A stretch of DNA of 26,721 nucleotides from Candidatus Omnitrophica bacterium CG02_land_8_20_14_3_00__42_8. Lineage in GTDB: Bacteria; Omnitrophota; Gorgyraeia; Gorgyraeales; Gorgyraeaceae. Every line of letters starts with the position of its first letter. Position 1 is the first letter of the stretch. Made by a program: the position numbers and the translations under genes. The notes under the pieces were generated by a model. It saw nothing but the letters and a program-made list of their open reading frames with translations. It made no database searches and was not told the origin of the DNA. The stretch covers positions 1-26,721 of the forward strand of contig PEUD01000002.1 in assembly GCA_002780805.1 (NCBI GenBank), read 5' to 3'. Below are positions 1,865-25,420 of the stretch, in pieces.

Positions 1865-3637
1865 TCACCATAACGCGATATCTGACATTTTTTTAAAAAC
1901 AATGTTATTGCTGCTGCATATATCTATTATTTCTTCATGCGAAGCGTCATTCATGGAAGGAATAGCCAAAAACAACTCGTCTATCTTGTATTTTTTTACA
2001 AGTTGAGGTATGTTATGCCTTGAACCTATTATCGGTACGCCATGTATATTTCTGCCATGTTTTTCTAAATTGTCGTCGATAAAACCAACAGGCATATAGC
2101 TTAATTTCCTATTGTACCTTATACCTCTTAACAGATATTCACCGGCATCGCCTGCGCCCATTATCAAAATCCTTTTGCCTGACTTAGAGTCGAAATTGAA
2201 ATATTCCCTGAACATCCTCATTACAAATCTTGCCCCGGAAGCGGCTGTCAACAACAACAGCCAGTCTATCACAAAGACCGCCCTGGAATAACCCTGTATA
2301 CGAAATAAAAATACCAATGCTATAATGGAGCTTATACAACTAAATGTAACCGCCTTGATAACATTAAAAAGATCATGAAATCCGGCGTATTCCCAAACTG
2401 CTTTATACAGGCCGAAACTGTAAAAAAAACTGAGCTTTATAATAATAATTATAGGTAACGACTCCACGATCAATTTTGCATTAACAGGTACAAGAATGCC
2501 TTCATACCTTAAAAGATAGGCGCCGACATAACTTGCGCTTATAATAAAAAGATCTATCATTATCTCAAACATCTTCTGTTTGTGATAAATCATACCGCCT
2601 AAAGATATATGATTGCCATTTGTATGTTTTTTAGGCTCTGCGGCATAGACTCTGACACGGCTTAAGAAAATACCAAAAAACAACATTAATAACGCGGCTG
2701 CCATAAACAAAACTATTACAGCCGTCACGTTTAATTTTGTATACGCAAAGGCTATCAACCCGCAACACAGGCTTATAAAATACAAAGTCAGCACTGCCCT
2801 GCGCTCTGACATACCCAAAACTACCAGCCTGTGAGATGTATGATCTTTCCCGCCGTCGTAAAAATGCCTGCCGCTTGCCCTACGATTTAAAGTAACTAGT
2901 ATGGTATCAAATACCGGCACCCCTAAAACCAATACAGGAACCGCCAGGGTGCCCAAAATATTGGATGTGCCCCGCCAGGTGCCCATAACACTTATCGCGG
3001 CTATTACAAAACCTATAAACATAGAACCGCAATCACCCATGAAAATCTTTGCAGGATTAAAATTATACCTTAAAAATCCTAAGGCAGCAGCCCCTAAAAT
3101 CAATCCTATCATAGCTGCGCTTGAACCCGCATGAAAACCGTAATGCACAAAAATTATCCCTGCCGATATCACGGTGATACCGGCGCACAAACCATCCATA
3201 TTATCTAAAAGGTTAAAAGCATTCATTATCGCGACAAACCAGAATATAGTGACAAATATATTAAGAAAATCCACCGGTAGCACTTTAAAGCTGATGCCAA
3301 AAATACACATAAATGTTGCTATGATAATCTGCGCAAAAAGCTTTGAATACGGTTTTATGCTGAATATATCGTCTATGAGCCCTGTTATAAATACAGCCGT
3401 AGAGCCTGCCAACAATGGAAAAAACAGGCTATTGCCCCTTTCGAAAATCAAAAACGATATAAAAAAAGATACGAATATCGCTATGCCGCCACATATGGGT
3501 ATAACCCGCTTGTTCCAACGGTCGTTTTTCGGCTTTGCTACAAAGTTATAACGCAGCGCCATCCTCCGGACCAACGGCGTCAAGAACAAAGATAAAAGCA
3601 ATGTTATTAAAAAAACCGGTAGATATTTTACTGCCAT
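1865..3637 (-). CDS. wecA: WecA/TagO-like UDP-HexNAc:undecaprenyl-phosphate HexNAc-1-P transferase fused to a CapD/PglF-type N-terminal membrane + CoA-binding-like Rossmann domain
   Basis: MraY/WecA motifs: GLIDD, NAFNLLDNMDGL, IFMGDCGS, DHTSHRL, with many TM segments (about aa 1-330). C-terminal part: DLFIISASYVGAYLLRY, FVIDWLL, KRILIMGAGDAG, PVGFIDDN, GVPIIG, matching the CapD/WbpM N-terminal module. No SDR catalytic domain follows. Confidence 0.85.
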   Translation of the reverse strand: MAVKYLPVFLITLLLSLFLTPLVRRMALRYNFVAKPKNDRWNKRVIPICGGIAIFVSFFISFLIFERGNSLFFPLLAGSTAVFITGLIDDIFSIKPYSKLFAQIIIATFMCIFGISFKVLPVDFLNIFVTIFWFVAIMNAFNLLDNMDGLCAGITVISAGIIFVHYGFHAGSSAAMIGLILGAAALGFLRYNFNPAKIFMGDCGSMFIGFVIAAISVMGTWRGTSNILGTLAVPVLVLGVPVFDTILVTLNRRASGRHFYDGGKDHTSHRLVVLGMSERRAVLTLYFISLCCGLIAFAYTKLNVTAVIVLFMAAALLMLFFGIFLSRVRVYAAEPKKHTNGNHISLGGMIYHKQKMFEIMIDLFIISASYVGAYLLRYEGILVPVNAKLIVESLPIIIIIKLSFFYSFGLYKAVWEYAGFHDLFNVIKAVTFSCISSIIALVFLFRIQGYSRAVFVIDWLLLLTAASGARFVMRMFREYFNFDSKSGKRILIMGAGDAGEYLLRGIRYNRKLSYMPVGFIDDNLEKHGRNIHGVPIIGSRHNIPQLVKKYKIDELFLAIPSMNDASHEEIIDICSSNNIVFKKMSDIALW

Positions 3638-12912: not shown

Positions 12913-14757
12913 TCAAATATAACCTTTCACCAGGTAATAGGCTATGCCTAAATATTCATGCATAATGGCTTTTATCTGCTCCAGCCTTACACCTCTGGAC
13001 CTGTCATAAAACTGGCTGTTACTGACAGGGGCATACACCACCCTGACACCGCGGCCTGATTTATCAAATACCGCCTTTGCCCTTCTCATATTATAAGGCG
13101 ACGTGACAAGTAAAACGGTTTTATAGTTATTCTTGTTCAGGATATTTTTTGAAAATATAACGTTTTCATAAGTGCTGTTTGCCTTTTCCTCTAAAATAAT
13201 ATCCTCTGCCGGCACACCCATAGAGAGAGCGAAAAGTTTCATGTTCTGGGCATCGTTGTATATATACGTGTATCCTGATGAAAATATCAACTTATTCGCG
13301 TACCCTTTGTTGCGCAATTCAACGGCATATCTGGCCCTCTCAATAGTACTCTTACCGGGGCTACCTGTTTCTCCGACCCCGCCTCCAAATACCACTATCG
13401 CGTCAGCCTTTTGCGGCATTTCAGAAATTCTTAAAGGGCTTGCCAAAAACCAGATAAAGGGCGTTGTAAACAGTAAAAAATAAACCAGCGCGCAAACAGC
13501 GCCGAAACGAAATACCTTTCTTCTGGCAACCCTGTAAAAATTAACCAGGTTTTCCTTCCACATGGCTTCCATATCCGTTGTTTTTCTCTCAATTTCAGCC
13601 TCTATCAAACTACTCATATTCTCTATGCGCGCCGCCCAGCTGTTCTGGCTGGCAACTTCTATTCTAACCCCTGCTAAAGAATCTTTATTTTCATTAACCG
13701 TTTGCGTAAGATATTTATCAAATTTCGCGCTGTCATCTGCTACATACACAACATTATTGTAAGTCCTGTTAAACGATATAACCTCAGGCAGGGATGTGGA
13801 TACAACCGCCTTACCCATTGCCAAATATTCATTTAATTTTGTCGGATAGACGTTTTTCGTATAATCAGTGATAGCGTACGGGATAATGCATGTATCAAAA
13901 TATTTGATGAATAGCGGCAGTTTCTGGTGGTCTTTTTTGCCCAGGAAATAAACATTCTTGAAAAGCGAAAACAGGGTTATATCAGTCTGCACAGGCCCTA
14001 TAAAAACAAAAGAATATTCCGGGTGCGCCTCTGCCAGGCCTTTCACCAGGCGCTGGTCGATCCATTTGTGCACACCGCCTATATAGCCGACTATCGGCTT
14101 TTTAATGCCAACCAGCTCCTCCGGCATCGGATCCTGCCCAAACAGGGCCTTCTGGAACTTGTCAAAATTTACGGCAAAAGGGAAACTATACACCTTGCTG
14201 TTATATTTAGAACAGTAGTTGTACAATTCCGCAGAGGTCACAAAAACCAAATCCGCTTTTTTTAACAATCTCTCTTCTGAGCGCTTTATCTTTTTAGCTG
14301 AAGCTGAACTGACGGCAAAACTATCAATACAATAATAAATAAATATTTTTTTCTTCAGATTATCCGCTATATCAAGACTTAAAGGGGTCGGCAAAAATGT
14401 CCATACGACAGGATCGCTGAAATTCATCGCCTTCATCCACTTTTCCAATGCGGAAAGGATTAAACGCCTGTTTATCCATCTTACAGCCCTGAGATAAGGA
14501 AACGGAAAAACCAACGGCGAAAATATATACAGGTTATGCGCCTCCTTATTTATACCCCTTGTCCCTTTAAACCAATTCTTAACCCTGTTTCTAATCCTGG
14601 AAAAATCTTTTATGCCCGGGGCCCTTACACCTGTATTTTCAATAAAAAGGACTCTATTGCCGTTTTTAGCAAGGTTGCTCATTATTTCCTGGTGCCCCTG
14701 CCATATAAAATCCCAATCTATGCTGGATATGCAGATAATGTCTTTATTTTTTAGCAT
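12913..14757 (-). CDS. Fusion: TuaH-like GT-B glycosyltransferase + single TM helix + YdcF/ElyC/SanA (DUF218) domain
   Basis: N-terminal: DIICISSIDWDFIWQGHQEIM, RVLFIEN, YYCIDSF, ADLVFVTS, VGYIGGV, FVFIGP, YPTKLNEYLAMGKAVVST. Hydrophobic stretch FGAVCALVYFLLFTTPFIWFLA. C-terminal: ADAIVVFGGG, RARYAVEL, LIFSSG, GVPAEDIILEEKANSTYENV, VLLVTSPYNMRRA, HEYLG. Confidence 0.87.
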   Translation of the reverse strand: MLKNKDIICISSIDWDFIWQGHQEIMSNLAKNGNRVLFIENTGVRAPGIKDFSRIRNRVKNWFKGTRGINKEAHNLYIFSPLVFPFPYLRAVRWINRRLILSALEKWMKAMNFSDPVVWTFLPTPLSLDIADNLKKKIFIYYCIDSFAVSSASAKKIKRSEERLLKKADLVFVTSAELYNYCSKYNSKVYSFPFAVNFDKFQKALFGQDPMPEELVGIKKPIVGYIGGVHKWIDQRLVKGLAEAHPEYSFVFIGPVQTDITLFSLFKNVYFLGKKDHQKLPLFIKYFDTCIIPYAITDYTKNVYPTKLNEYLAMGKAVVSTSLPEVISFNRTYNNVVYVADDSAKFDKYLTQTVNENKDSLAGVRIEVASQNSWAARIENMSSLIEAEIERKTTDMEAMWKENLVNFYRVARRKVFRFGAVCALVYFLLFTTPFIWFLASPLRISEMPQKADAIVVFGGGVGETGSPGKSTIERARYAVELRNKGYANKLIFSSGYTYIYNDAQNMKLFALSMGVPAEDIILEEKANSTYENVIFSKNILNKNNYKTVLLVTSPYNMRRAKAVFDKSGRGVRVVYAPVSNSQFYDRSRGVRLEQIKAIMHEYLGIAYYLVKGYI

Positions 14758-15811: not shown

Positions 15812-17031
15812 TTTGTGAGCTCGCTGTATATCCTGCGATAACTATCTGCGCCCATTTCCAGCGACAGATACTTCCGGGCTACTGCGCGGCACCTGCCTGC
15901 AAGGGTTTTACCTTCCTGCAACAATTCAAATAATTCTTTAATCTTATCCATGTATTCATTTTTATTGAAGTCTTTGATTACCACCCCTACGCGATTATCC
16001 CTGACCAGCTCCTCTGTATCTCCGATTCCGGAATTTATAATAACAGGCTTTCCGCAGGCTAAAAATTCGCCAAGCTTAATAGGGGATGACCCAAATTTTT
16101 TATACGGATTTATAAAAAATATGCCTGCGTCTGCGCAATTCAGTAAAACCGGTATCTCCTCATATAAGGGATGGATAAAATAGGCCTTTTGGCTGTCTAT
16201 ACTGATTTTCTTTTTGTTTAACACCTCTATATCATCCTGCGTCAAAATCAAAAATTTTAAATTCTGATTTTTGCCGGATGCGCATTCAAAAAAATCCATC
16301 ATTTCTTTTATTAAATAAAAAGTGCCCAGCTTGCCGGGATAGATAAACAGCATATCTGCCGTTATACCGTATTTTTTAAGCGCATCTTTCTTACGGATGT
16401 CGCTATAATCCCCGAATCTTTCCATATCAACGCAGCACGGTATAACAGATATGGAGATATTTTTGTCTTTAAAGTATCCTGTATCAGCGATACTGCTTCT
16501 GTGCTTTTCTGTCAGAACCACCACTGCATCGGTTTTACTGAACAGTTTTTTTTCTGCGGCCTTGACAAGGTTAAAAAACACCCCGGCTTCCTTCCACAGC
16601 CCGCCGCCTACGTATTCTTCTGCCAGGAGCCCCCTTGTGTCAAATATAAACTTAAACCCTAATATGCGCGGCAGAAATAAGGCTATAACTCCAGGCGTCA
16701 CGCCCCTTACATGGATAATCCCGAACCTATGCCTGGCCGCTAGATATAAAGATACAAAAAAACCTGTTATTACGTCAAAAAAAGTGGATATTTTATCGGG
16801 ATACTTGTGGTAAACAAGCCATTTCCAGGTAATCCCGTAATTTTTCAGCTCATCGCCTATACGTTTCAGCTCTCCAGGCGTATATTTCTCCAGGTCTTTC
16901 TTCTTTTCAAACGTCAGCAGGACAAATTTATACCCGTCTTTTGAAAGTATTTTAAGATAGGGCGTAACCTGTGATGGCAAAATACTTTCCAGCAGGCCGT
17001 TATAAGAAATGTAAAGGACCTTTTTATTCAT
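15808..17031 (-). CDS. GT4 family glycosyltransferase
   Basis: KVLYISYNG...SQVTPYL, IIHVRG, IFDTRGLLAEE, VIPCCVD, YPGKLG, SSPIKLGEFLACGKPVI. Confidence 0.9.
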   Translation of the reverse strand: MNKKVLYISYNGLLESILPSQVTPYLKILSKDGYKFVLLTFEKKKDLEKYTPGELKRIGDELKNYGITWKWLVYHKYPDKISTFFDVITGFFVSLYLAARHRFGIIHVRGVTPGVIALFLPRILGFKFIFDTRGLLAEEYVGGGLWKEAGVFFNLVKAAEKKLFSKTDAVVVLTEKHRSSIADTGYFKDKNISISVIPCCVDMERFGDYSDIRKKDALKKYGITADMLFIYPGKLGTFYLIKEMMDFFECASGKNQNLKFLILTQDDIEVLNKKKISIDSQKAYFIHPLYEEIPVLLNCADAGIFFINPYKKFGSSPIKLGEFLACGKPVIINSGIGDTEELVRDNRVGVVIKDFNKNEYMDKIKELFELLQEGKTLAGRCRAVARKYLSLEMGADSYRRIYSELTK

Positions 17032-18481
17032 GTAACGACCTGTATAAATCCCGCACTAATTTTATTGCTACGCCGCGAAACTGCGTAGCAAGCATTTTAA
17101 AAAGCCTTATTGGATTATTAAGATTATACTTGATGAAATAAAACAGGTTTATAGGCAGCACGGTTGATATCCTTGCTTTCATATACAGCCTTTCGAATCT
17201 TTTATGAGGCATGTCGGCATAATTAAAATTGAAGCCCTCAGGATCTCCTATGACGTCCCAGCTTGGAACCTGCATGCTTTTTTCCTTTAGCATCTTATAA
17301 ACCGAAGTCCCGGGCAAAGGCATAAACAGATTAAGGCTTATTGTGTTAGGGCGGACTTTCCATAAAAATTTTAACGTTTTATTGAAGTCTTCTTCTGTCT
17401 CCCCGGGGTAACCCGTAATAATATTGCCCTGAAATCTTAAGCCTGAGCTTCTGGTAATCCTAGCTGCCTGTATATTTTTCTCAACCTTAACATTTTTTCC
17501 CATTAGATCCAGTATTCTCTGCGATCCGGATTCAAAGCCGTATTCAACCTGCACGCATCCGGAATCCTTCATCATATCCAGCAATTCCCTGTCAACAATA
17601 TTAGTCCTTAACTGGGCAAACCATTTGATCTTTTTATTAAACTTGTTCTCCTTGAACAGCTCCATAAATTTTTGCGCGCGCGCCTTATCACTCAGAAACA
17701 TATCCTCCGCAAAATAAAGGCCTTCTATGGCATACATATCTATAAGCGTTCTTATTTCCTGCATAACGCGCTGGGGTGAATGAAAACGGACTTTTCTGCC
17801 GTAAAATAAAGGCCCTGCGCAGAAATTGCACTGGTAAGGGCACCCCCTGGCAGTAAATATGGATGTAGAGCGCAGGTTAAGGTTTCTGCTTATATACCTG
17901 CTTGGCCTGGTATAAAACTTCATATCCAATAAATGCCTTGCAGGCAAAGGCAGAGAATCCATGTCCTGAAATAGCGGCCTGTCTGCGTTACTGAATATCT
18001 GCCCTTTATCTCTGTAGGTTAACCCCGATATCAGATCAAAAGGCATGCCGCTTGCCAGATCAAGCATTGTAAATTCGCCTTCGCCTCTTACAACCCCATC
18101 AATATAATCGCAATCCTTCAATGTTGATTCAGGCTCTGCTGTAACATGCGGCCCGCCTGTAATTACTATTCTTTTCGGGTTATGCGATTTTACTATTTTG
18201 GCAACATAAAAAACATCCGATATTGTAGGAGTCGTGCCGCCTATACCAACAATATCCGAATTGATGCTTTCTATGGCTGCCTCTGTCTCTCTGTCAGCCC
18301 TGTCAAAATCCATGCTGTTTTTTCTAAGCAAGGCGTCTCTGTCAATTATATTGACCTTATGGCCGTTTTTTTCCAGGACTGCCGCAATATAAGCAAGGCC
18401 CAAAGGCGGCCAGTACTGCTTATTTTCATCTATAAGGCTTCTTGACCTTGATAATAAAGGGTATATTAAAGATACATTCAT
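17024..18481 (-). CDS. Cobalamin-binding domain radical SAM protein (class B) #2
   Basis: WPPLGLAYIAAVL, DIVGIGG, ITGGPHVT, VVRGEGE; TARGCPYQCNFC; YFAEDMF; YGFESGSQRIL; IITGYPGET; MPLPGT. Confidence 0.93.
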   Translation of the reverse strand: MNVSLIYPLLSRSRSLIDENKQYWPPLGLAYIAAVLEKNGHKVNIIDRDALLRKNSMDFDRADRETEAAIESINSDIVGIGGTTPTISDVFYVAKIVKSHNPKRIVITGGPHVTAEPESTLKDCDYIDGVVRGEGEFTMLDLASGMPFDLISGLTYRDKGQIFSNADRPLFQDMDSLPLPARHLLDMKFYTRPSRYISRNLNLRSTSIFTARGCPYQCNFCAGPLFYGRKVRFHSPQRVMQEIRTLIDMYAIEGLYFAEDMFLSDKARAQKFMELFKENKFNKKIKWFAQLRTNIVDRELLDMMKDSGCVQVEYGFESGSQRILDLMGKNVKVEKNIQAARITRSSGLRFQGNIITGYPGETEEDFNKTLKFLWKVRPNTISLNLFMPLPGTSVYKMLKEKSMQVPSWDVIGDPEGFNFNYADMPHKRFERLYMKARISTVLPINLFYFIKYNLNNPIRLFKMLATQFRGVAIKLVRDLYRSLHE

Positions 18482-19806
18482 TAAGGCGTTTTCTCTTTTC
18501 CTGTTTTAAAACTTAACCCTGCCCCTATTAATATAAAAATAAAGGGCAGGACCATTGACCTGTGCCTGAATAAAGTCCCTACGTTGCCTTCTATAAAAGC
18601 AAAAATCAGCATCATCACAAATATGTATGCAATTATTGCCCCGCCTTCTTTCATCTTATACTTCATAATAAAATACCATCCTGAAAACATGGCAGGCAGT
18701 AAAATATAATATAACAGCATTTCCGGCATAGCCATTATTTGAATCATGCTCGAGATCTCCCACGGAAAAGGAGCCAGCCATGCTATCAACAGCGCTATTG
18801 GTAAAAATACTCCCACATCCGCCGGATTTGTAAATTTCCAATTTTCAAGAAAAGCTGATCCGCCGTATGCCCTGTAACTGCGCATCTCAGATATCCAATC
18901 CAGCATCGAAAGGCTGCCAAAAGGCAGTATCTTTAGCAGGTACGCTTTCAGCACTGTAAAAAACATAAAAATTAGGAACAAAACCAGAATTATAAAAAAT
19001 ATGAATTCCGCCTTTCTGGTTTTCCACAGTGACAGTAAAAAAGACAGCGGAATTGAAATCGCGAAAAACGCAAAAAATAACAGCGATCTGAATTCCTTTA
19101 CGGCAAAGCTAAACGCTATAAACAAGGCAATCAGGTAAAATCTGAACTGTATTTTTAACTGCAGCGCGCTCCATATTAAAACAACAATCAAAAATACGGA
19201 GATGGGTTCTTTAAGATTTTGCACAGACCAGAAAAATAAGGACGGCCAAAATGCCGTTAAAACAGAGGCATACCTTGCGGCCTTTTTGCTGAAAACCTGC
19301 TCTGTTATGAAAAACACAATTACAGCCGTAAGGGAACCTGCCAAACAGTTGATAAGTATCAAAGACATGGGATTCACGCCTGCAAAATAGTAAACTATGG
19401 CATTCCAGAAATCATAACTGCCCACTGTTCCGCTGGCATTAGAAATATCGCTTATTAAATAATTACTGATATAGTCAATATCGTGTATTCCTATTAACCA
19501 CATCCGCAGTATTTTGTAACCATTCTCGGCATAGGGCTGGCCGTCGCCTAATAAACCGTTTCCGTTTAATAAAAAAACAAAATTATACAATAAAAAAGCT
19601 GCTATTATTCTGGTTAAAAATGCCATGATAAAAACGCCTGACAAAAAAATGTAATCTTTCAATTTTTCCTGTTTATGCATGGATAAAAATACGCCTATAA
19701 AAAATCCAAAAATTATAATAAAAACAGGGAAAATATAAGGCCACGGCAAACACATTAAAGCAGCCGATATCACGGCAATAATAAGGAAAACAAGATTTTT
19801 ATTCAT
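18481..19806 (-). CDS. Polytopic membrane protein, putative GT-C fold polysaccharide polymerase/transferase (Wzy-like)
   Basis: About 11-12 hydrophobic segments; loop GDGQPY, WSVQNLKEP, WLAPFPW, GNVGTLFRHRSMVLPF. The pattern resembles GT-C/Wzy-type proteins of glycan loci; the exact family was not resolved by eye. Confidence 0.6.
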   Translation of the reverse strand: MNKNLVFLIIAVISAALMCLPWPYIFPVFIIIFGFFIGVFLSMHKQEKLKDYIFLSGVFIMAFLTRIIAAFLLYNFVFLLNGNGLLGDGQPYAENGYKILRMWLIGIHDIDYISNYLISDISNASGTVGSYDFWNAIVYYFAGVNPMSLILINCLAGSLTAVIVFFITEQVFSKKAARYASVLTAFWPSLFFWSVQNLKEPISVFLIVVLIWSALQLKIQFRFYLIALFIAFSFAVKEFRSLLFFAFFAISIPLSFLLSLWKTRKAEFIFFIILVLFLIFMFFTVLKAYLLKILPFGSLSMLDWISEMRSYRAYGGSAFLENWKFTNPADVGVFLPIALLIAWLAPFPWEISSMIQIMAMPEMLLYYILLPAMFSGWYFIMKYKMKEGGAIIAYIFVMMLIFAFIEGNVGTLFRHRSMVLPFIFILIGAGLSFKTGKEKTP

Positions 19807-19810
19807 TTTT

Positions 19811-22129
19811 CTAGAAATATCTGTGTTTTATAAAATCTAAATAACAAGCCAAGTAATCAAATTTTTCACTACAATAAAGGCATGGCTGACCAATTTTTTT
19901 GAACCGCTTATTAATAATATCGTCCATTATTTGGCGCCTTTTTTCGGATTTCCACAGATCGTAAATTGAATTCTTTAATACATTTCCGTATGTCAATCTT
20001 GTGTTATAATCCAAACAGCAGATATAAACATCACCTTCTGTTGATATAAACATCTTGTCAAAAAAGGCCTCCCCAAGAATACCTGAAGGGCAGCTTATGC
20101 GCCTCTTTTCTTTTGCCTGGTTGTTCCAGCTGTAAAACCATATGATTTCGTCGATACAATCATAGGCCGATAGAAAATCCTTCCAATATTGAATAACCTG
20201 AGGGGAATCGTACGGCGCGTTAATTTTTTTATTTTTTCTTAAATTCATATATCTTTTCGGAGAAAGTATTTCTATGCATACCTGGCAGCTGCTGCCTGCT
20301 TTATTCCTTGCAGATATAAAATCGTGCAGATTTACCTTTACCTTGTTGAAATTAAGCCCGGGCTTACTGTGCCTGTATGTCTCTTCTGAGGCGCCGTCTA
20401 TATTCAGGGTCAGCTTTGACAGGTTGTGCTTAATCAGGAATTCTGAAACATCCCTGTCTACATTCATCATATTGGTATAAAGCACAAGCTTTGCCAAAGG
20501 CAGCCTCTCGCGCGTATATTCAATAATATTTTTAAAATCCGGGTTTAGCAGCGCGTCCCCGTTTTCTCCGAAATTAATGCTGCCTGAAAATTCGTGGCCT
20601 GCCAACTCATCAACCACCTTCTTTACAACTCTCATTGGCATAAATCTTTCCTTACCTGATAAATCTTTTTTATACGGCACAGGGCAAAAAATGCAGTTAG
20701 CCTGGCATTCCCTGCTAAGCATGAAACCGATAAACTTAAACGGCAGATTCATCTTCCTGTTGTATATGCGCTTATTTGACAGCATTAATGCCGGCTCCCA
20801 TGACTTGGCGATACTTTTAATAACATGGTATTTTTTACTGCCCTTCAGCTCGCATTCATAAAACTTCATAAATTGACTGATAATCCTGGCCGGGTTTAAA
20901 ATGTTTACGCCTACTGCTGAAAAAATCAAAATCAAAGGCATAATCGGAACCTGGTACCTCACCTCTCCAAAAAATATCGTATGTATGCCCGCAACATAAA
21001 AAATAGGCAAAAGAACAGGAAGCAGGGTCTTCAGCTTGGCGCGCGATACAAACATCCCCACACCTGCCAGCGCCAGCAAAAACAGGCTTATAATCAAAAG
21101 CAGAATCTTTACTGCCAATACCCCAAACTCTTTTTTTGAAATTACTCCGGCAAAACTGTCCCTGGTCATATAAAATGCGCTTGAATAGCTGCCTATTAAA
21201 AACCTGCCCAGATGTTCCGCGCACAATCGCATATATATAAAAGGGTGTTGGCTTACATTTCTTAACCCCTCTTTAAAAAGCGCCTTATCCAAAAATATAT
21301 GGGATTCGGCTTTATTTAGGTCTAAATCCTTTACCAGGCTTTTAACCGGTTCATATTCTGACAGATTATCCCATTCCAGAAAACGGGCAGGATGGGAATC
21401 TTTCCAAAAAGTGCTGCCTGTGCCTGTAGCCACAGGCACAACTGATTTAAATCTGAAGTGGTTACGCATTGTCCAGGGAAAGATAACCAAAACCGCAGCT
21501 ATGGCGGCTATTAAACTATACAGGCCTATCTTTTTCTTATAACGGTAAGCCAGCGCCAAAAGAAGAGGAAAAATAACTACCAACAGCAGCATTTCCTGGC
21601 GGCACAAAACCAGCAGCCCGAGAAATATGCCGAACAAAATGTAAAAAATCAACGCATCTTTGCGCAAGGCAGTAACCAGAAAATAAAGCGCCGTTAAAAC
21701 CAGAAAACCGGAGATTGTTTCGGTTAAAATAAGGCCGCTGTAAAAAATGAGCGCCGGGTGCAAAACCGATAACACCGATGCGCGCAATGCGATTTTATGA
21801 TCTATTAACTGCTTCGTTATTACATATATCAAAATACAGCAGAAAGCGCCTATAATCGCCTGAAAAATCCTTATAATAAGATAGTTATGACCGAAGGAAT
21901 AATAAAAAAAAGCCAACGTAAACGGGTACAGCGGCGGCCTGTGCGCAGTCAAAGACCCGTCCGGATGGGAAAAACCCTTTCCGTCGGCAATCTGGCTAGC
22001 CAGATTATCATAATCTATGGCATCGGTTGTTATGGGAACCTGGGGCAGATATATTACATACCCAAGGCGCAGTATCAACGCCGCTAAAAATATTAAAAAT
22101 AAAAGATTTCTGGGTTTAATGTTTGACAT
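19811..22129 (-). CDS. Fusion: ArnT/PMT-like GT-C (GT39/GT83-type) membrane glycosyltransferase + C-terminal radical SAM domain with SPASM/twitch extension
   Basis: N-terminal: TDAIDYDNLA, AHRPPLYPF, LILTETIS, PWTMRNH, EVRYQVPIMP with many TM helices. C-terminal: RECQANCIFCP (CxxxCxxC, 20684-20707), LTLNIDG, C...EGDVYICCLD...GNV...IYDLW...CLYC. One uninterrupted frame. Start placed at ATG 22129 (AAGGA RBS) rather than TTG 22153. Confidence 0.87.
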   Translation of the reverse strand: MSNIKPRNLLFLIFLAALILRLGYVIYLPQVPITTDAIDYDNLASQIADGKGFSHPDGSLTAHRPPLYPFTLAFFYYSFGHNYLIIRIFQAIIGAFCCILIYVITKQLIDHKIALRASVLSVLHPALIFYSGLILTETISGFLVLTALYFLVTALRKDALIFYILFGIFLGLLVLCRQEMLLLVVIFPLLLALAYRYKKKIGLYSLIAAIAAVLVIFPWTMRNHFRFKSVVPVATGTGSTFWKDSHPARFLEWDNLSEYEPVKSLVKDLDLNKAESHIFLDKALFKEGLRNVSQHPFIYMRLCAEHLGRFLIGSYSSAFYMTRDSFAGVISKKEFGVLAVKILLLIISLFLLALAGVGMFVSRAKLKTLLPVLLPIFYVAGIHTIFFGEVRYQVPIMPLILIFSAVGVNILNPARIISQFMKFYECELKGSKKYHVIKSIAKSWEPALMLSNKRIYNRKMNLPFKFIGFMLSRECQANCIFCPVPYKKDLSGKERFMPMRVVKKVVDELAGHEFSGSINFGENGDALLNPDFKNIIEYTRERLPLAKLVLYTNMMNVDRDVSEFLIKHNLSKLTLNIDGASEETYRHSKPGLNFNKVKVNLHDFISARNKAGSSCQVCIEILSPKRYMNLRKNKKINAPYDSPQVIQYWKDFLSAYDCIDEIIWFYSWNNQAKEKRRISCPSGILGEAFFDKMFISTEGDVYICCLDYNTRLTYGNVLKNSIYDLWKSEKRRQIMDDIINKRFKKIGQPCLYCSEKFDYLACYLDFIKHRYF

Positions 22130-22997
22130 ATTTCCTTTTATTACTTGCAACAACCAGAATATTGGCTGATAAAATATCCCGTAAAAACGGAATTTTCAAG
22201 ATCGCGGACTCAAAAGAAACCCGCAAAAAATTCAATCTGCTGATAAACCTGTTGCCGAAAGGAAGATAAAATTCGTCATTTTTGTAAAAAAAGTTTATTT
22301 TGCGAAACCCGATATCCCGGCACAATTTTCTTGCTTGAAAAGGCGTAATCTCGCCGATATGGCTTGCGGTCAAAAAAACAGTTTCCATAGATACTTTGTC
22401 ATTAAAAAATATCTTCCTTAATGCCTCGTTAAGCTTCTGATTTATAACAAAAATTTTATTCGGCGTGTATGCTACAAATACCCCTGCCTGCTTTAATACA
22501 TAACCAATTCCCTGCCTTATGCTTTTCTTCTGATTTTTGGTCAAATGCTCTAAAAAATCGGCTGATATAATTTTATCAAAAGAACCTTCCCTGAAAGGCA
22601 ATGACGCGGCATCGGCGCATACAAAATACCTGCGCCCGTTTGAACTATCCGGAAATTGTTGATTTATTTTTTTTGCCACCTTAAGCGACTCCAGCGAATA
22701 ATCAAGCCCTATACATAAACCGGTATGCTTTGCGCAGTTAAAAGTAAACGTCCCTATGCCGCACCCTAAGTCCAGAACGCGCTCTCCTTTTTTAAGGACT
22801 GCGGCAGCGAGAATCCTGTCTACCCTGTGCCTGGAACATTCTCCGTCAGATGCATAATAATCAGCTATTTGTTTTTCTATAGGTATACACAAAGCCACTT
22901 TATCATGAAATGTCTTGTTAAAAATATCAGCAGGTATAGTATCGCGCCTATCATACAGATCTTTCAACATCCAGGCTATATCCTTATTTGTCTGCAT
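22116..22997 (-). CDS. Class I SAM-dependent methyltransferase (Methyltransf_11/25-like)
   Basis: RVLDLGCGIGTF, IGLDYS, CADAASLPFREGSFDKIISADFLEHL, YTPN; AAGGA RBS at 23003-23007. Confidence 0.9.
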   Translation of the reverse strand: MQTNKDIAWMLKDLYDRRDTIPADIFNKTFHDKVALCIPIEKQIADYYASDGECSRHRVDRILAAAVLKKGERVLDLGCGIGTFTFNCAKHTGLCIGLDYSLESLKVAKKINQQFPDSSNGRRYFVCADAASLPFREGSFDKIISADFLEHLTKNQKKSIRQGIGYVLKQAGVFVAYTPNKIFVINQKLNEALRKIFFNDKVSMETVFLTASHIGEITPFQARKLCRDIGFRKINFFYKNDEFYLPFGNRFISRLNFLRVSFESAILKIPFLRDILSANILVVASNKRKYVKH

Positions 22998-24081
22998 TTT
23001 TGTCCTTAAGACCTATCAGGCTTATAAAAAACGACGCCATCACTACCTGTATGCCAAACACCATCAATATAAAGCTGGATAGAAAAAGCTTGGCATCGGC
23101 ATATTCATATGCCTTGCTAAAATTCAAGCCTATCCCTGCCGCAAACAACAGAAAACCCAGCAGGATTCCCTGCTCTAATTTACAATATCTGTAAAACCGC
23201 TTAAAAAACGCTGTCTTAAGCGTATAGCCCTCTGTAAAGGAATATTCGCTGGCAAAAAGCCATAAAATCAATATCTGAAATCCCAAAATTATCCCCAGGC
23301 CACCCAGGCTTATCAATTTAAAATTGTCGCTTAACCCAAAAATGGAAACGCCTAAAATAAAAAGCGCCAACCCAGGCAGCAAAAAAAGATAATTGGGACA
23401 GAATAAAAGTATAAACCTCAAGCTGCGCCACCCGTCAAGAAAAGTCCTTAGCTTGGATTCGCCCTGCCTGGCATCCAGGGTAATGGGTATTTCCGCGCGT
23501 TTTAAATTAAGTAAAGATGACTTTATGACCAGCTCCAGGCAAAATTCCATACCTCTGCTTAAGGGATTAATTTTTTTATAAGCCTCTTTTGTAAACGCCT
23601 TAAAACCGCAATATACATCGGAAAAACGCGCTTTAAACACAAAACCTATAAGCCATGTCAGCCCCGGGTTGCCTATATACTGATGCAGCCACGGCATAGC
23701 GCCTTTTGCTATATGCCCCTTAAACCGGCTGCCGCTTACAAATTCAAACCCGTTGCGCAGCTTTTCTACGAATTTTCCGATTTCCGAAAAATTATAGGTA
23801 TCATCAGAATCGCCTATTATTATAAATTTGCCTTTTGCCTCTTCTATACCCTTCAGGTATGCGCTGCCATACCCTTTTATCGGCTGATTAACTATTCTGG
23901 CGCCTTCCTTCCTGGCCATCTCAATAGAATTATCGCTTGACCCATTATCAGCAACAATAACCTCTCCGCTGATCCCAAGCTTTTCCAGGGCCTGACTTGC
24001 CTTCCTGACGCATATGCCTACGGTTTTCTCTTCATTTAAACACGGCATCACCACCGATACTTCAATGTTATTTTGTTCCAT
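22984..24081 (-). CDS. GT2 glycosyltransferase, DPM1/ArnC/GtrB-like, with C-terminal transmembrane helices
   Basis: VSVVMPCLNEE, VADNGSSD, GYGSAY, IGDSDDTY, VSGSRF, DVYCGFKAF, GMEFCLE, KLRTFLDGWRSLRFILL, then about 4 hydrophobic segments; GAGGGG RBS at 24090-24095. Confidence 0.92.
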   Translation of the reverse strand: MEQNNIEVSVVMPCLNEEKTVGICVRKASQALEKLGISGEVIVADNGSSDNSIEMARKEGARIVNQPIKGYGSAYLKGIEEAKGKFIIIGDSDDTYNFSEIGKFVEKLRNGFEFVSGSRFKGHIAKGAMPWLHQYIGNPGLTWLIGFVFKARFSDVYCGFKAFTKEAYKKINPLSRGMEFCLELVIKSSLLNLKRAEIPITLDARQGESKLRTFLDGWRSLRFILLFCPNYLFLLPGLALFILGVSIFGLSDNFKLISLGGLGIILGFQILILWLFASEYSFTEGYTLKTAFFKRFYRYCKLEQGILLGFLLFAAGIGLNFSKAYEYADAKLFLSSFILMVFGIQVVMASFFISLIGLKDKNADK

Positions 24082-24082
24082 T

Positions 24083-25420
24083 TTATTTTCCCCTCGCTTG
24101 CAGTATTATTGCCAGTTTTTCCCTGATGCGCTGTATAAATCTTCTCATCTCAAGCATCCTGTAAAATTTGCGGTGCATGCTCCTAAGCTGTGCGCGCGAA
24201 AGGCGCTCTGATAATATTATGGCTTTTTCAAAGTTTTCCCTGAAATCCATCTTAAGGCACGACCAGTCCATTTCGTCTGAAACCAGGCCTCTTTTTTTGG
24301 CATAATCCCAGATAGGCGTCCCCGGAAATGGTGTCAGCACATAGACATCGGCATAATGCAGCTTATTTTTCTTTATAAAATTATACGTATCCATCATCGC
24401 GCGTTTTGTCTCAGTAGGATGGCCTATTACAAAACTGCCCACAACGCGTATGCCGGCGTTATTACACAGCCTGACTGCCCGGCGGTTATTCTCTACGCTC
24501 ACAGTCGCGCCCTTTAAATATTTCAACGACTCCGGATTGCCTGATTCCAAACCGCAAGTCACAAACTTTATTCCCATTTCTTTAAGTGCTGACACAATGT
24601 CCTCAGTAAGCAAGTTTGTCCTTATTGAAGCGCCAAATTCTACTTTTTTATCCAGCCCCTTTGATTTTATAAGCTCTTTGATTTTAAAAACTCTTTTTTT
24701 ATCCGCAATAAACAAATCATCCATAAAAAATATCTCTTTAACAGGGTAATTTTTAACCAGTTCCTCTATTTCAGAAACAACATATTCTGCGGAAAAAAAT
24801 CTGACGCGGTTAAAAAAGCGCGTAGAAGCGCAAAATACACAGTCATAAGGGCAGCCGCGCGAACTAAACACATAGGTTGTAGGCCCAATATCCATAAGAT
24901 CCCTTGCAGGCATAGGCAGATCATCCAGATTATTAATCAAAGGCCTTGAGACAGTTTGAACCAAACGGCCTTTATCCCGGAATATAATACCTTTTACTCC
25001 TGATAATACATTAACAGGCAGATCGCGATTCTCAAAATAAAGCTTTACCAGGTCAAAAAATGTTTCCTCGCCTTCCCCGAGAACGCCAACATCTGCTTCT
25101 GACGGCAATAAGTGAGGCAGCGAAGAAATATGTATGCCGCCCATAATTACCTTACAGCCTTTTTCTTTTGCCAGACGCGCATGACTCATTGCCAAATTAA
25201 AATTCTGCGATATCGTTGATATTCCTACAATATCCGGCTTAAAAGAATCTATCTGGCTTTCAATATCCTCATCTATAATCCTGCACTCTATATTAAGCTG
25301 GCCTGCGTTTTTCCTTAAGAAGCTGACGATATAGCCCAACCCAAGCGACGGATATTTGCAGAGCTTCATCTGCTGCTGATAGTCAAATGTATTTATAAAT
25401 AGAATTTTAATCGGCATCAT
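24083..25420 (-). CDS. Cobalamin-binding domain radical SAM protein (class B) #3
   Basis: YPSLGLGYI, PDIVGIS, IMGGIHIS, GVLGEGE; SSRGCPYDCVFC; FFMDDLF; GLESGN; SFVIGHPTET; TPFPGTPIW. Confidence 0.93.
   Translation of the reverse strand: MMPIKILFINTFDYQQQMKLCKYPSLGLGYIVSFLRKNAGQLNIECRIIDEDIESQIDSFKPDIVGISTISQNFNLAMSHARLAKEKGCKVIMGGIHISSLPHLLPSEADVGVLGEGEETFFDLVKLYFENRDLPVNVLSGVKGIIFRDKGRLVQTVSRPLINNLDDLPMPARDLMDIGPTTYVFSSRGCPYDCVFCASTRFFNRVRFFSAEYVVSEIEELVKNYPVKEIFFMDDLFIADKKRVFKIKELIKSKGLDKKVEFGASIRTNLLTEDIVSALKEMGIKFVTCGLESGNPESLKYLKGATVSVENNRRAVRLCNNAGIRVVGSFVIGHPTETKRAMMDTYNFIKKNKLHYADVYVLTPFPGTPIWDYAKKRGLVSDEMDWSCLKMDFRENFEKAIILSERLSRAQLRSMHRKFYRMLEMRRFIQRIREKLAIILQARGK

Follow-up and report, generated by a model that had tools for sequence, protein, structure and literature searches.

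The stretch of DNA analysed here (the window, 26,721 nucleotides) is the whole of contig PEUD01000002.1, one of 152 contigs in a 1.14-Mb metagenome-assembled genome (MAG, 75% complete) of an uncultured Omnitrophota bacterium from groundwater. On its minus strand lies the gene for a protein, P0001, that joins a polytopic membrane glycosyltransferase of the C superfamily (GT-C) to a radical S-adenosylmethionine (SAM) enzyme assigned to the twitch subclass. We propose that P0001 is a bifunctional inner-membrane protein whose radical SAM domain would tailor a lipid-linked sugar, to be transferred afterwards by the GT-C domain, a reading to which we give a probability of roughly 55%. Both domains belong to known families, and the new element is the GT-C partner for the radical SAM enzyme. 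The earlier note on this DNA, made from the letters alone, had known of no characterised protein combining the two domains; likewise, the architecture turned up neither in searches of the literature on radical SAM enzymes with GT-Cs nor in a recent survey of Omnitrophota genomes.

The gene is a single uninterrupted frame (19811-22129, on the minus strand like all other features of the window given below) of 772 amino acids plus stop, much as the earlier note had described it, and a TTG upstream at 22153 offers an alternative start for a fused product of 780 amino acids. From N- to C-terminus it comprises a GT-C (PMT_2/ArnT-like) domain (residues 1-410, 20900-22129), delimited by Pfam, hydropathy, AlphaFold2 (AF2) helices, Foldseek and positive-inside counts over 28 homologs; a basic linker (residues 411-459, 20753-20899), placed by alignments, the AF2 model and charge counts; a radical SAM core (residues 460-650, 20180-20752), defined by Pfam, alignment and comparison with the enzyme BtrN; and a twitch, or truncated SPASM, domain (residues 675-772, 19814-20107), recognised from the family alignment and the auxiliary-cluster cysteines of BtrN. 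Pfam matches exceed the gathering scores in both halves: PMT_2 (residues 64-217, 53.6 bits against a cut-off of 26.1) and PMT (42.2 bits against 22.7) in the first, Radical_SAM PF04055 (residues 472-603, 50.1 bits against 29.5) and SPASM (residues 690-753, 39.1 bits) in the second. The GT-C motifs were located by script at D36-x3-Y40, R64PPLYP, T136E137, P218WxxRN and R391YxxP, the CxxxCxxC motif at C475/C479/C482 (20684-20707), and the auxiliary-cluster pattern as C680 (20092), 23 residues, C704-C705, G715N716 and C750xxC753 (ending at 19871); all motif coordinates of the earlier note proved correct. The full-length AF2 model of P0001 has a mean predicted local distance difference test score (pLDDT) of 90.8, the only low-confidence stretch being residues 419-433.

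A frame fused by a missed stop or an indel would be conceivable in an incomplete MAG of so many contigs, and the earlier note had wanted the junction checked for it. The 90% cluster of P0001 has 19 members drawn from NCBI, JGI, ENA and Logan, on contigs of up to 33 kb; the 15 that were aligned are 99-100% identical and every one of them carries the fusion, while two copies in the cluster are 618 amino acids long and lack the N-terminal 154 residues. The junction region is held by at least 24 groundwater or aquifer runs dated 2014-2018. Per-run contigs from 4 runs (four samples/studies) cover 20300-21400 with 0 substitutions and 0 gaps, one of them at depth 80; this check was made on assembled contigs, and the window's DNA may itself derive from some of these samples. 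With near-identical fused copies from four sources and per-run contigs free of differences, we regard a sequencing or assembly artefact as ruled out, its chance being next to nil. The earlier note had also hung its case on a junction without a stop and on homologs that are themselves fused: the junction carries no stop, and independently fused homologs exist, as described below.

The N-terminal half, in which the earlier note had seen a polytopic GT-C of some 420 amino acids, has what an intact PMT_2/ArnT-like enzyme would be expected to show. Ten transmembrane (TM) helices are predicted (approximately residues 9-27, 85-103, 113-131, 134-152, 158-176, 179-196, 201-219, 337-355, 369-387 and 393-411), with a large predicted periplasmic loop at residues 220-335, and Foldseek matches this half to STT3, AglB, PglB and ALG9, all in keeping with the GT-C fold. 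The first periplasmic loop holds the motif D36-x3-Y40-D41 (22007-22024) with the putative catalytic acid or acids, identified by conservation in the family rows (D36 in 28 of 29, Y40 in 29 of 29, D41 in 23 of 29). P0001 keeps all the positions conserved in 28 GT-C members, namely D36, Y40, D41, R64, P66, Y68, P69, E137 and R177, and further P218, W219, R222, N223, H383, R391, Y392 and P395. Since every family-conserved position is present, the GT-C domain looks catalytically intact; residues 66-80, we infer by analogy with ArnT, form a juxtamembrane helix.

With the ArnT/PMT/GT39-GT83 enzymes this half shares the above-threshold PMT_2 match, the GT-C fold and an acidic motif in the first periplasmic loop, and its R-P-P-x-Y-P presumably matches the position of YFEKP in E. 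coli ArnT. P0001 is not an ArnT orthologue, scoring 20.4 bits against a cut-off of 567 with the equivalog NF009784. ArnT has 13 TM helices followed by a periplasmic C-terminal domain, whereas the GT-C of P0001 has 10 predicted helices and lacks that domain, an arrangement that would leave its C-terminus in the cytoplasm. The charge distribution agrees: over 28 homologs, lysine plus arginine (K+R) averages 1.8-2.9 in the short predicted cytoplasmic loops and 0.1-1.1 in the short periplasmic ones, so both termini are predicted to be cytoplasmic, as would fit an enzyme that uses an iron-sulfur (Fe-S) cluster and SAM, and as the earlier note had required of the C-terminus. Also consistent with this placement are the even helix count, the K/R-rich tails (8-31 residues) of stand-alone GT-C members, a character shared by the linkers of both known fusions, and a sister protein of the same GT-C family, P0076, which carries a class I SAM methyltransferase fused at its C-terminus. 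The methyltransferase gene overlapping the GT-C 3' end in the closest GT-C relatives fits this placement too. A hydropathy scan of P0001 after residue 411 found no hydrophobic segment (maximum Kyte-Doolittle value, KD19, 0.99).

The closest solved relative of the radical SAM half, by sequence, profile and fold, is BtrN, the 2-deoxy-scyllo-inosamine dehydrogenase of the butirosin pathway (PDB 4M7T/4M7S). It was the sole solved-structure match when the whole protein served as query (E 5e-8), its Met1 aligning with M460, and it headed the search with a profile of 26 relatives (E 2.9e-30), followed by CteB (1e-12) and by DesII and anSME (about 1e-8). Foldseek likewise ranked BtrN first (target TM-scores 0.68 and 0.77) and DesII next. 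The beta/alpha core, modelled by AF2 with pLDDT above 90, carries the SAM-binding motif GENGDALLNP in addition to CxxxCxxC. Invariant across the 26 radical SAM relatives are C680, G699, C704, D707, G715, W726, C750 and C753, with C705 near-invariant; C704 and C750xxC753 align with the auxiliary-cluster cysteines of BtrN, and C680, C704, C750 and C753 are candidate ligands of an auxiliary [4Fe-4S] cluster. A full SPASM domain with two auxiliary clusters was considered and rejected, the Cx2Cx5Cx3C motif being absent and C753 being followed by just a non-conserved C762, 8 residues on. Given the match to BtrN and the single conserved set of cysteines without that motif, we read the layout as a twitch with one auxiliary cluster. 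The BtrN-type assignment made in the earlier note is thus borne out by the profile search, the Foldseek rank and the cysteine alignment.

The resemblance to BtrN also bears on the idea that the C-terminal domain is a SPASM maturase acting on peptides or proteins, as in RiPPs (peptides that are modified once the ribosome has made them), or on a cofactor, and has nothing to do with sugars. Weak NCBIfam matches to the spiro-SPASM, tungsten-cofactor, WgkB and mycofactocin maturases hint in this direction, as does the presence of CteB, SuiB and anSME in the Foldseek list for this half. However, those matches lie far under the family cut-offs. The 7-cysteine SPASM motif is missing, a single set of auxiliary-cluster cysteines being conserved, and in the profile search every peptide maturase trails BtrN by some 18 orders of magnitude. 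Besides, a precursor peptide gene is not apparent, and all of the surroundings belong to glycan biosynthesis. We therefore consider a maturase very improbable.

In BtrN as in P0001, the radical SAM core with its CxxxCxxC motif precedes a twitch domain that has a single auxiliary [4Fe-4S] cluster, and the substrate of BtrN is a carbohydrate-like cyclitol. At about 16% identity the likeness is one of fold and cluster layout only. P0001 differs in some 60 extra residues between core and twitch, in an N-terminal helix extension, and in a near-invariant Cys705 where BtrN has phenylalanine; moreover, it lies in a surface-glycan locus and its radical SAM domain is tethered to a membrane protein, whereas BtrN belongs to an aminoglycoside cluster. 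NeoN and HygY are described in PMC10991966, citing Besandre 2021, as twitch sugar epimerases with a cysteine as hydrogen-atom donor.

The junction between the two halves retains the trace of a gene boundary. Stand-alone GT-C relatives stop 8-31 residues past TM10 (P0003 and P0004 do so 10 residues past it), while P0001 continues from F420 straight into M421. The linker helix at residues 434-459 corresponds by homology to an extension that stand-alone radical SAM relatives have at their N-terminus (the alignment match covers 442-459), and one of these relatives, P0033 (362 amino acids, 46% identity), has a 27-residue lead ahead of the homologous 'FEP'. Because GT-C relatives end and radical SAM relatives begin there, we take 420|421 as the former stop/start boundary. 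The in-frame ATG of M421 (20867-20869), to which the earlier note had pointed, is present and, judging from the gene ends of the relatives, is likely the ancestral start of a stand-alone radical SAM gene. The fused gene would then have arisen by loss of the stop between two adjacent genes, and as the genes of this operon overlap or sit 1-18 nucleotides apart, one change would have been enough. With stand-alone proteins as the closest relatives of both halves, the fusion in P0001 appears young.

A further in-frame ATG, M449 (20783-20785), is a possible internal start for a radical SAM protein of 324 amino acids. It raises the alternative that translation from M449 or M421 yields most of the enzyme in a soluble form of its own, and that the fused product is minor or non-functional. 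The GGGAG found 9 nucleotides upstream of M449 resembles the better Shine-Dalgarno sites of the operon, M421 is itself a likely old start, and the products, 324 or 352 amino acids, would match the stand-alone relatives of 332-362. On the other hand, most genes of the operon show no clear Shine-Dalgarno sequence, which makes the motif at M449 weak evidence, and a second pair of fusions, P0182 and P0184 (below), has held a fused frame and a conserved linker over a long divergence. Production mainly from an internal start is in our view unlikely.

To place the fusion among its relatives, an exhaustive HMMER search was run over 1.84 billion cluster representatives. The best relatives of each half of P0001 are single-domain proteins: P0032 (55% identity) for the GT-C alone, and P0033, P0034 and P0037 (42-46%) for the radical SAM domain alone. 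The GT-C::radical SAM architecture was found in three sequence clusters, represented by P0001, P0182 (746 amino acids) and P0184 (747 amino acids). P0182 comes from the same genus as P0001, with 24% identity end to end. A word-indexed search with region 455-772 for long proteins carrying this radical SAM domain returned only P0001's own cluster, no further GT-C fusion stood among the matches listed in a scan of 400 genomes of the phylum, no close relative was confirmed in the genome-contig scan, and a GT-C plus radical SAM cluster of at least 50 members was not found in the ESM Atlas, whose clusters included GT2-radical SAM and cytidylyltransferase-radical SAM combinations.

In the radical SAM tree P0001 shares a clade (100% support) with six stand-alone proteins, distant from P0182; in the GT-C tree its neighbours P0003, P0004 and P0032 are likewise stand-alone (96-99% support), and P0182 is once more distant. 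On these grounds the idea of one ancient fusion family is rejected. As strongly supported branches part P0001 from P0182 in both trees, each with stand-alone nearest relatives, at least two independent fusions are indicated. Even though P0182 is long-branched in either tree, the most economical reading is that there were two, that of P0001 being young and that of P0182/P0184 old and kept by selection. P0182 and P0184 are 72% identical, with a proportion of synonymous differences (pS) of 0.70, near saturation, and a nonsynonymous-to-synonymous ratio (dN/dS) of about 0.09 (about 0.12 in the GT-C half and 0.07 in the radical SAM half). Both lie in the positional homologue of the P0001 locus, beside the conserved AsnB / GT4 / epimerase / phosphotransferase end.

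These results frame the most serious alternative, in which P0001 is a recent and essentially neutral read-through fusion of two independent enzymes of one glycan pathway, the radical SAM enzyme acting on a nucleotide sugar or on a repeat unit linked to undecaprenyl diphosphate (Und-PP) and the fusion providing membrane anchoring at most. A junction lying exactly at the former gene boundary, genes packed so closely that a single change suffices, stand-alone nearest relatives for both halves and near-identical fused copies are all as this alternative would have them, as is the methyltransferase gene that occupies the same slot in the closest GT-C relatives; in addition, the partners known from fusions of this radical SAM family are for the most part cytoplasmic (GT4, GT2, methyltransferase, B12-radical SAM). 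Against it stand the independent fusion in P0182/P0184, with near-saturated synonymous divergence and purifying selection in both halves, and the repeated pairing of the GT-C C-terminus with a SAM-using tailoring enzyme. The convergent fusion of the same two families is our argument for a functional link, and although we take neutral read-through seriously we consider it somewhat unlikely.

Several further observations weigh against a bifunctional enzyme for lipid-linked sugars. In the P0001 lineage the fusion has no evolutionary depth, the aligned copies being almost identical, and the closest GT-C relatives, P0003 and P0004 (62-64% identity, 424 amino acids), have no radical SAM partner; it is because of this shallowness and these relatives that neutral read-through could apply. 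The GT-C fusion is rare: two same-genus genomes carry it, G000 and G006 (the latter among 60 relatives searched), with no further case in the matches listed from the 400-genome scan, and other relatives have both families within large loci, usually 10-30 kb apart. The mostly cytoplasmic fusion partners suit a nucleotide sugar or the growing Und-PP-glycan as well as they suit a GT-C donor, the internal start at M449 could yield a separate enzyme, and no GtrA-type flippase was found in the organism's own MAG (75% complete). The earlier note had rated the fused gene the strongest lead of the window: the fusion is indeed real, but the rating is tempered by its youth and rarity in this lineage, the nearest homologs of each half being separate and the slot of the closest GT-C relatives holding a methyltransferase.

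In the proposed bifunctional mechanism, the catalytic loops of the GT-C would face the periplasm, while the basic linker (about 50 residues, flexible around the junction) would keep the BtrN-like radical SAM domain attached at the membrane's inner face. With the cluster bound by CxxxCxxC and a single auxiliary [4Fe-4S] cluster in its twitch part, this domain would abstract a hydrogen atom from a sugar carbon; the product could then form by oxidation of a carbinol to a ketone, as in BtrN, or by epimerisation, possibly with the extra conserved Cys705 as hydrogen donor. The domain would act on a polyprenyl-linked sugar or glycan intermediate that the pathway keeps in the membrane, most plausibly the polyprenyl-phosphate-hexose made by the GT2 encoded at 22984-24081. 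A separate flippase would move the tailored lipid-linked sugar across the membrane, and the GT-C would transfer the sugar onto the glycan in the periplasm. The fusion would serve to keep a soluble Fe-S enzyme at the membrane beside its lipid-linked substrate and in a 1:1 ratio with the transferase; intermediates would not be moved through the protein itself. The narrower version, in which radical oxidation or epimerisation at the cytoplasmic face, directly on a monosaccharide linked to polyprenyl phosphate, makes the very donor that the GT-C of the same polypeptide uses in the periplasm, is offered tentatively, as one possibility that we would not favour on present evidence.

The earlier note had gone further and imagined a reactive intermediate channelled across the membrane. 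This found no support: family scans of the window identified no flippase gene, and when the two domains were docked as individual chains no signal emerged (score 0.00, a result that speaks for neither side). Three Wzx-like genes are present on other contigs of the MAG.

Tailoring of a lipid-linked sugar has precedents. In the Arn pathway, ArnD deformylates Und-P-Ara4FN on the cytoplasmic face before flipping, and in mycobacteria DprE1/DprE2 epimerise decaprenyl-phosphate-ribose to decaprenyl-phosphate-arabinose via a keto intermediate, providing the donor for GT-C arabinosyltransferases. DprE1/DprE2 are a functional analogy only, being separate flavin/NADH proteins that are not homologous to P0001. 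Three-component systems of the Gtr-like or Arn-like kind consist of a polyprenyl-phosphate-sugar synthase, a flippase and a GT-C; the P0001 locus is similar in having a GT2 resembling such a synthase two genes upstream of P0001, and differs in that its flippase was not identified. Among relatives of the same twitch subfamily, the fusions to GT2, GT4, methyltransferase and B12-radical SAM enzymes occur in the same phylum and in similarly radical-SAM-rich surface-glycan loci, but their partners are cytoplasmic soluble enzymes, whereas the partner in P0001 is a polytopic membrane enzyme with its predicted active site on the opposite face.

Glycan loci of Omnitrophota are rich in radical SAM enzymes, none of which has a known substrate. 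The independent tethering of radical SAM to GT-C in two lineages is a Rosetta-stone clue suggesting that part of this chemistry takes place at the membrane, and that for at least this part the substrates are lipid-linked sugars and not soluble nucleotide sugars. If the narrower version is correct, no radical SAM enzyme before P0001 would have been shown to work on a lipid-linked sugar donor; P0001 would then be a physically coupled 'tailor-then-transfer' enzyme spanning both membrane faces, and the abundance of radical SAM enzymes in glycan loci of the phylum would be accounted for. Chemistry of this kind at the membrane, if borne out, would represent a new reaction class in bacterial surface-glycan biosynthesis as well as a new domain architecture for the GT-C family. 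Should the fusion be a neutral accident, it would reduce to an ordinary pair of neighbouring tailoring genes.

The window holds 25 long open reading frames (ORFs), all on the minus strand and separated by -38 to +18 nucleotides. In the order of transcription, the genes are GT4, B12-radical SAM, GT2, class I methyltransferase, the GT-C::radical SAM fusion, a second GT-C, B12-radical SAM, two GT4, GT4-DUF218, Wzy-like, GT2, B12-radical SAM, FkbM methyltransferase, methyltransferase, AsnB-like, GT4, epimerase, WecA-type phosphotransferase, GT4 and GT9, a content from which we assign the region to a Wzy-type surface-glycan locus resembling those for O-antigen or lipopolysaccharide. The GT2 at 22984-24081 is similar to polyprenyl-phosphate hexose synthases: its best NCBIfam matches, all under cut-off, are AglJ, a dolichyl-phosphate (Dol-P)-hexose transferase, PpgS and ArnC, and its syntenic homolog in locus L001 carries GT2_TM_C, which makes it a candidate maker of the lipid-phosphate-sugar donor. 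Between it and the fusion lies a class I SAM methyltransferase (22116-22997) that overlaps the start of the fused gene by 14 nucleotides, and 4 nucleotides downstream of the fused gene begins a second, very divergent PMT_2 GT-C (18481-19806). Two of the B12-binding radical SAM enzymes flank this group, one at 24083-25420, in a conserved block of B12-radical SAM / GT2 / methyltransferase / GT-C, and the other at 17024-18481, downstream of the two GT-C genes.

In the loci of P0003 and P0004 (L001:8001-9681 and L002:199-2251) a gene overlaps the GT-C 3' end by 17 nucleotides. The idea that this gene is a split-off radical SAM enzyme was rejected, as it encodes a class I methyltransferase. Together with P0076, these two loci give the impression that the slot after this GT-C is reserved for a cytoplasmic SAM-using tailoring enzyme.

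Around the second fusion, a DegT/DnrJ/EryC1 sugar aminotransferase gene lies near both P0182 (L034:528-1655) and P0184 (L033:5789-7084), none being present in the P0001 window; the proximity recalls the BtrN (oxidation) and BtrS (transamination) pair of butirosin biosynthesis. Directly upstream of P0182, a 492-amino-acid ORF without Pfam match (L034:1658-3136) overlaps the start of the fused gene by 1 nucleotide. P0033, the closest full-length stand-alone radical SAM relative, is encoded between wzm and wzt in a glycan locus of the ABC-transporter type that also has three FkbM methyltransferases and a TagF-like gene.

The radical SAM family itself, which its fusions and neighbours link to glycans, is widespread: of 400 genomes sampled from the phylum, 228 have it, often in several copies. 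It is fused to GT4 in P0098, P0183 and P0186 and to a class I methyltransferase in P0054. The gene for P0183, a GT4 (GT-B)-twitch radical SAM protein (L020:2211-4382), directly follows a stand-alone PMT_2 GT-C gene (844-2163). Longer chains also occur: Omnitrophota proteins of 843-1515 amino acids combine the twitch domain with one or two B12-binding radical SAM domains, on either side, giving up to three CxxxCxxC motifs per polypeptide (L024:1365-3896, L027:4069-8064, L028:589-5136, L029:2463-5600, L031:1307-4033 and L017:840-3683). P0189 (1275 amino acids, source name Clostridium botulinum), with methyltransferase, hexapeptide-repeat, GT2 and radical SAM-SPASM parts, shows that fusions of glycan enzymes with radical SAM domains exist outside Omnitrophota as well.

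Two other composite proteins are encoded in the window. The ORF at 12913-14757 (614 amino acids) has a GT4-like domain and a C-terminal DUF218 domain similar to YdcF/SanA. The ORF at 1865-3637 (590 amino acids) joins a WecA/MraY-type phosphotransferase (Glycos_transf_4) to a C-terminal region resembling CoA_binding_3 and the WbaP N-terminus, and conserved counterparts of this phosphotransferase occupy that end of the locus in two further Omnitrophota (L033:16429-18207 and L034:14434-15376).

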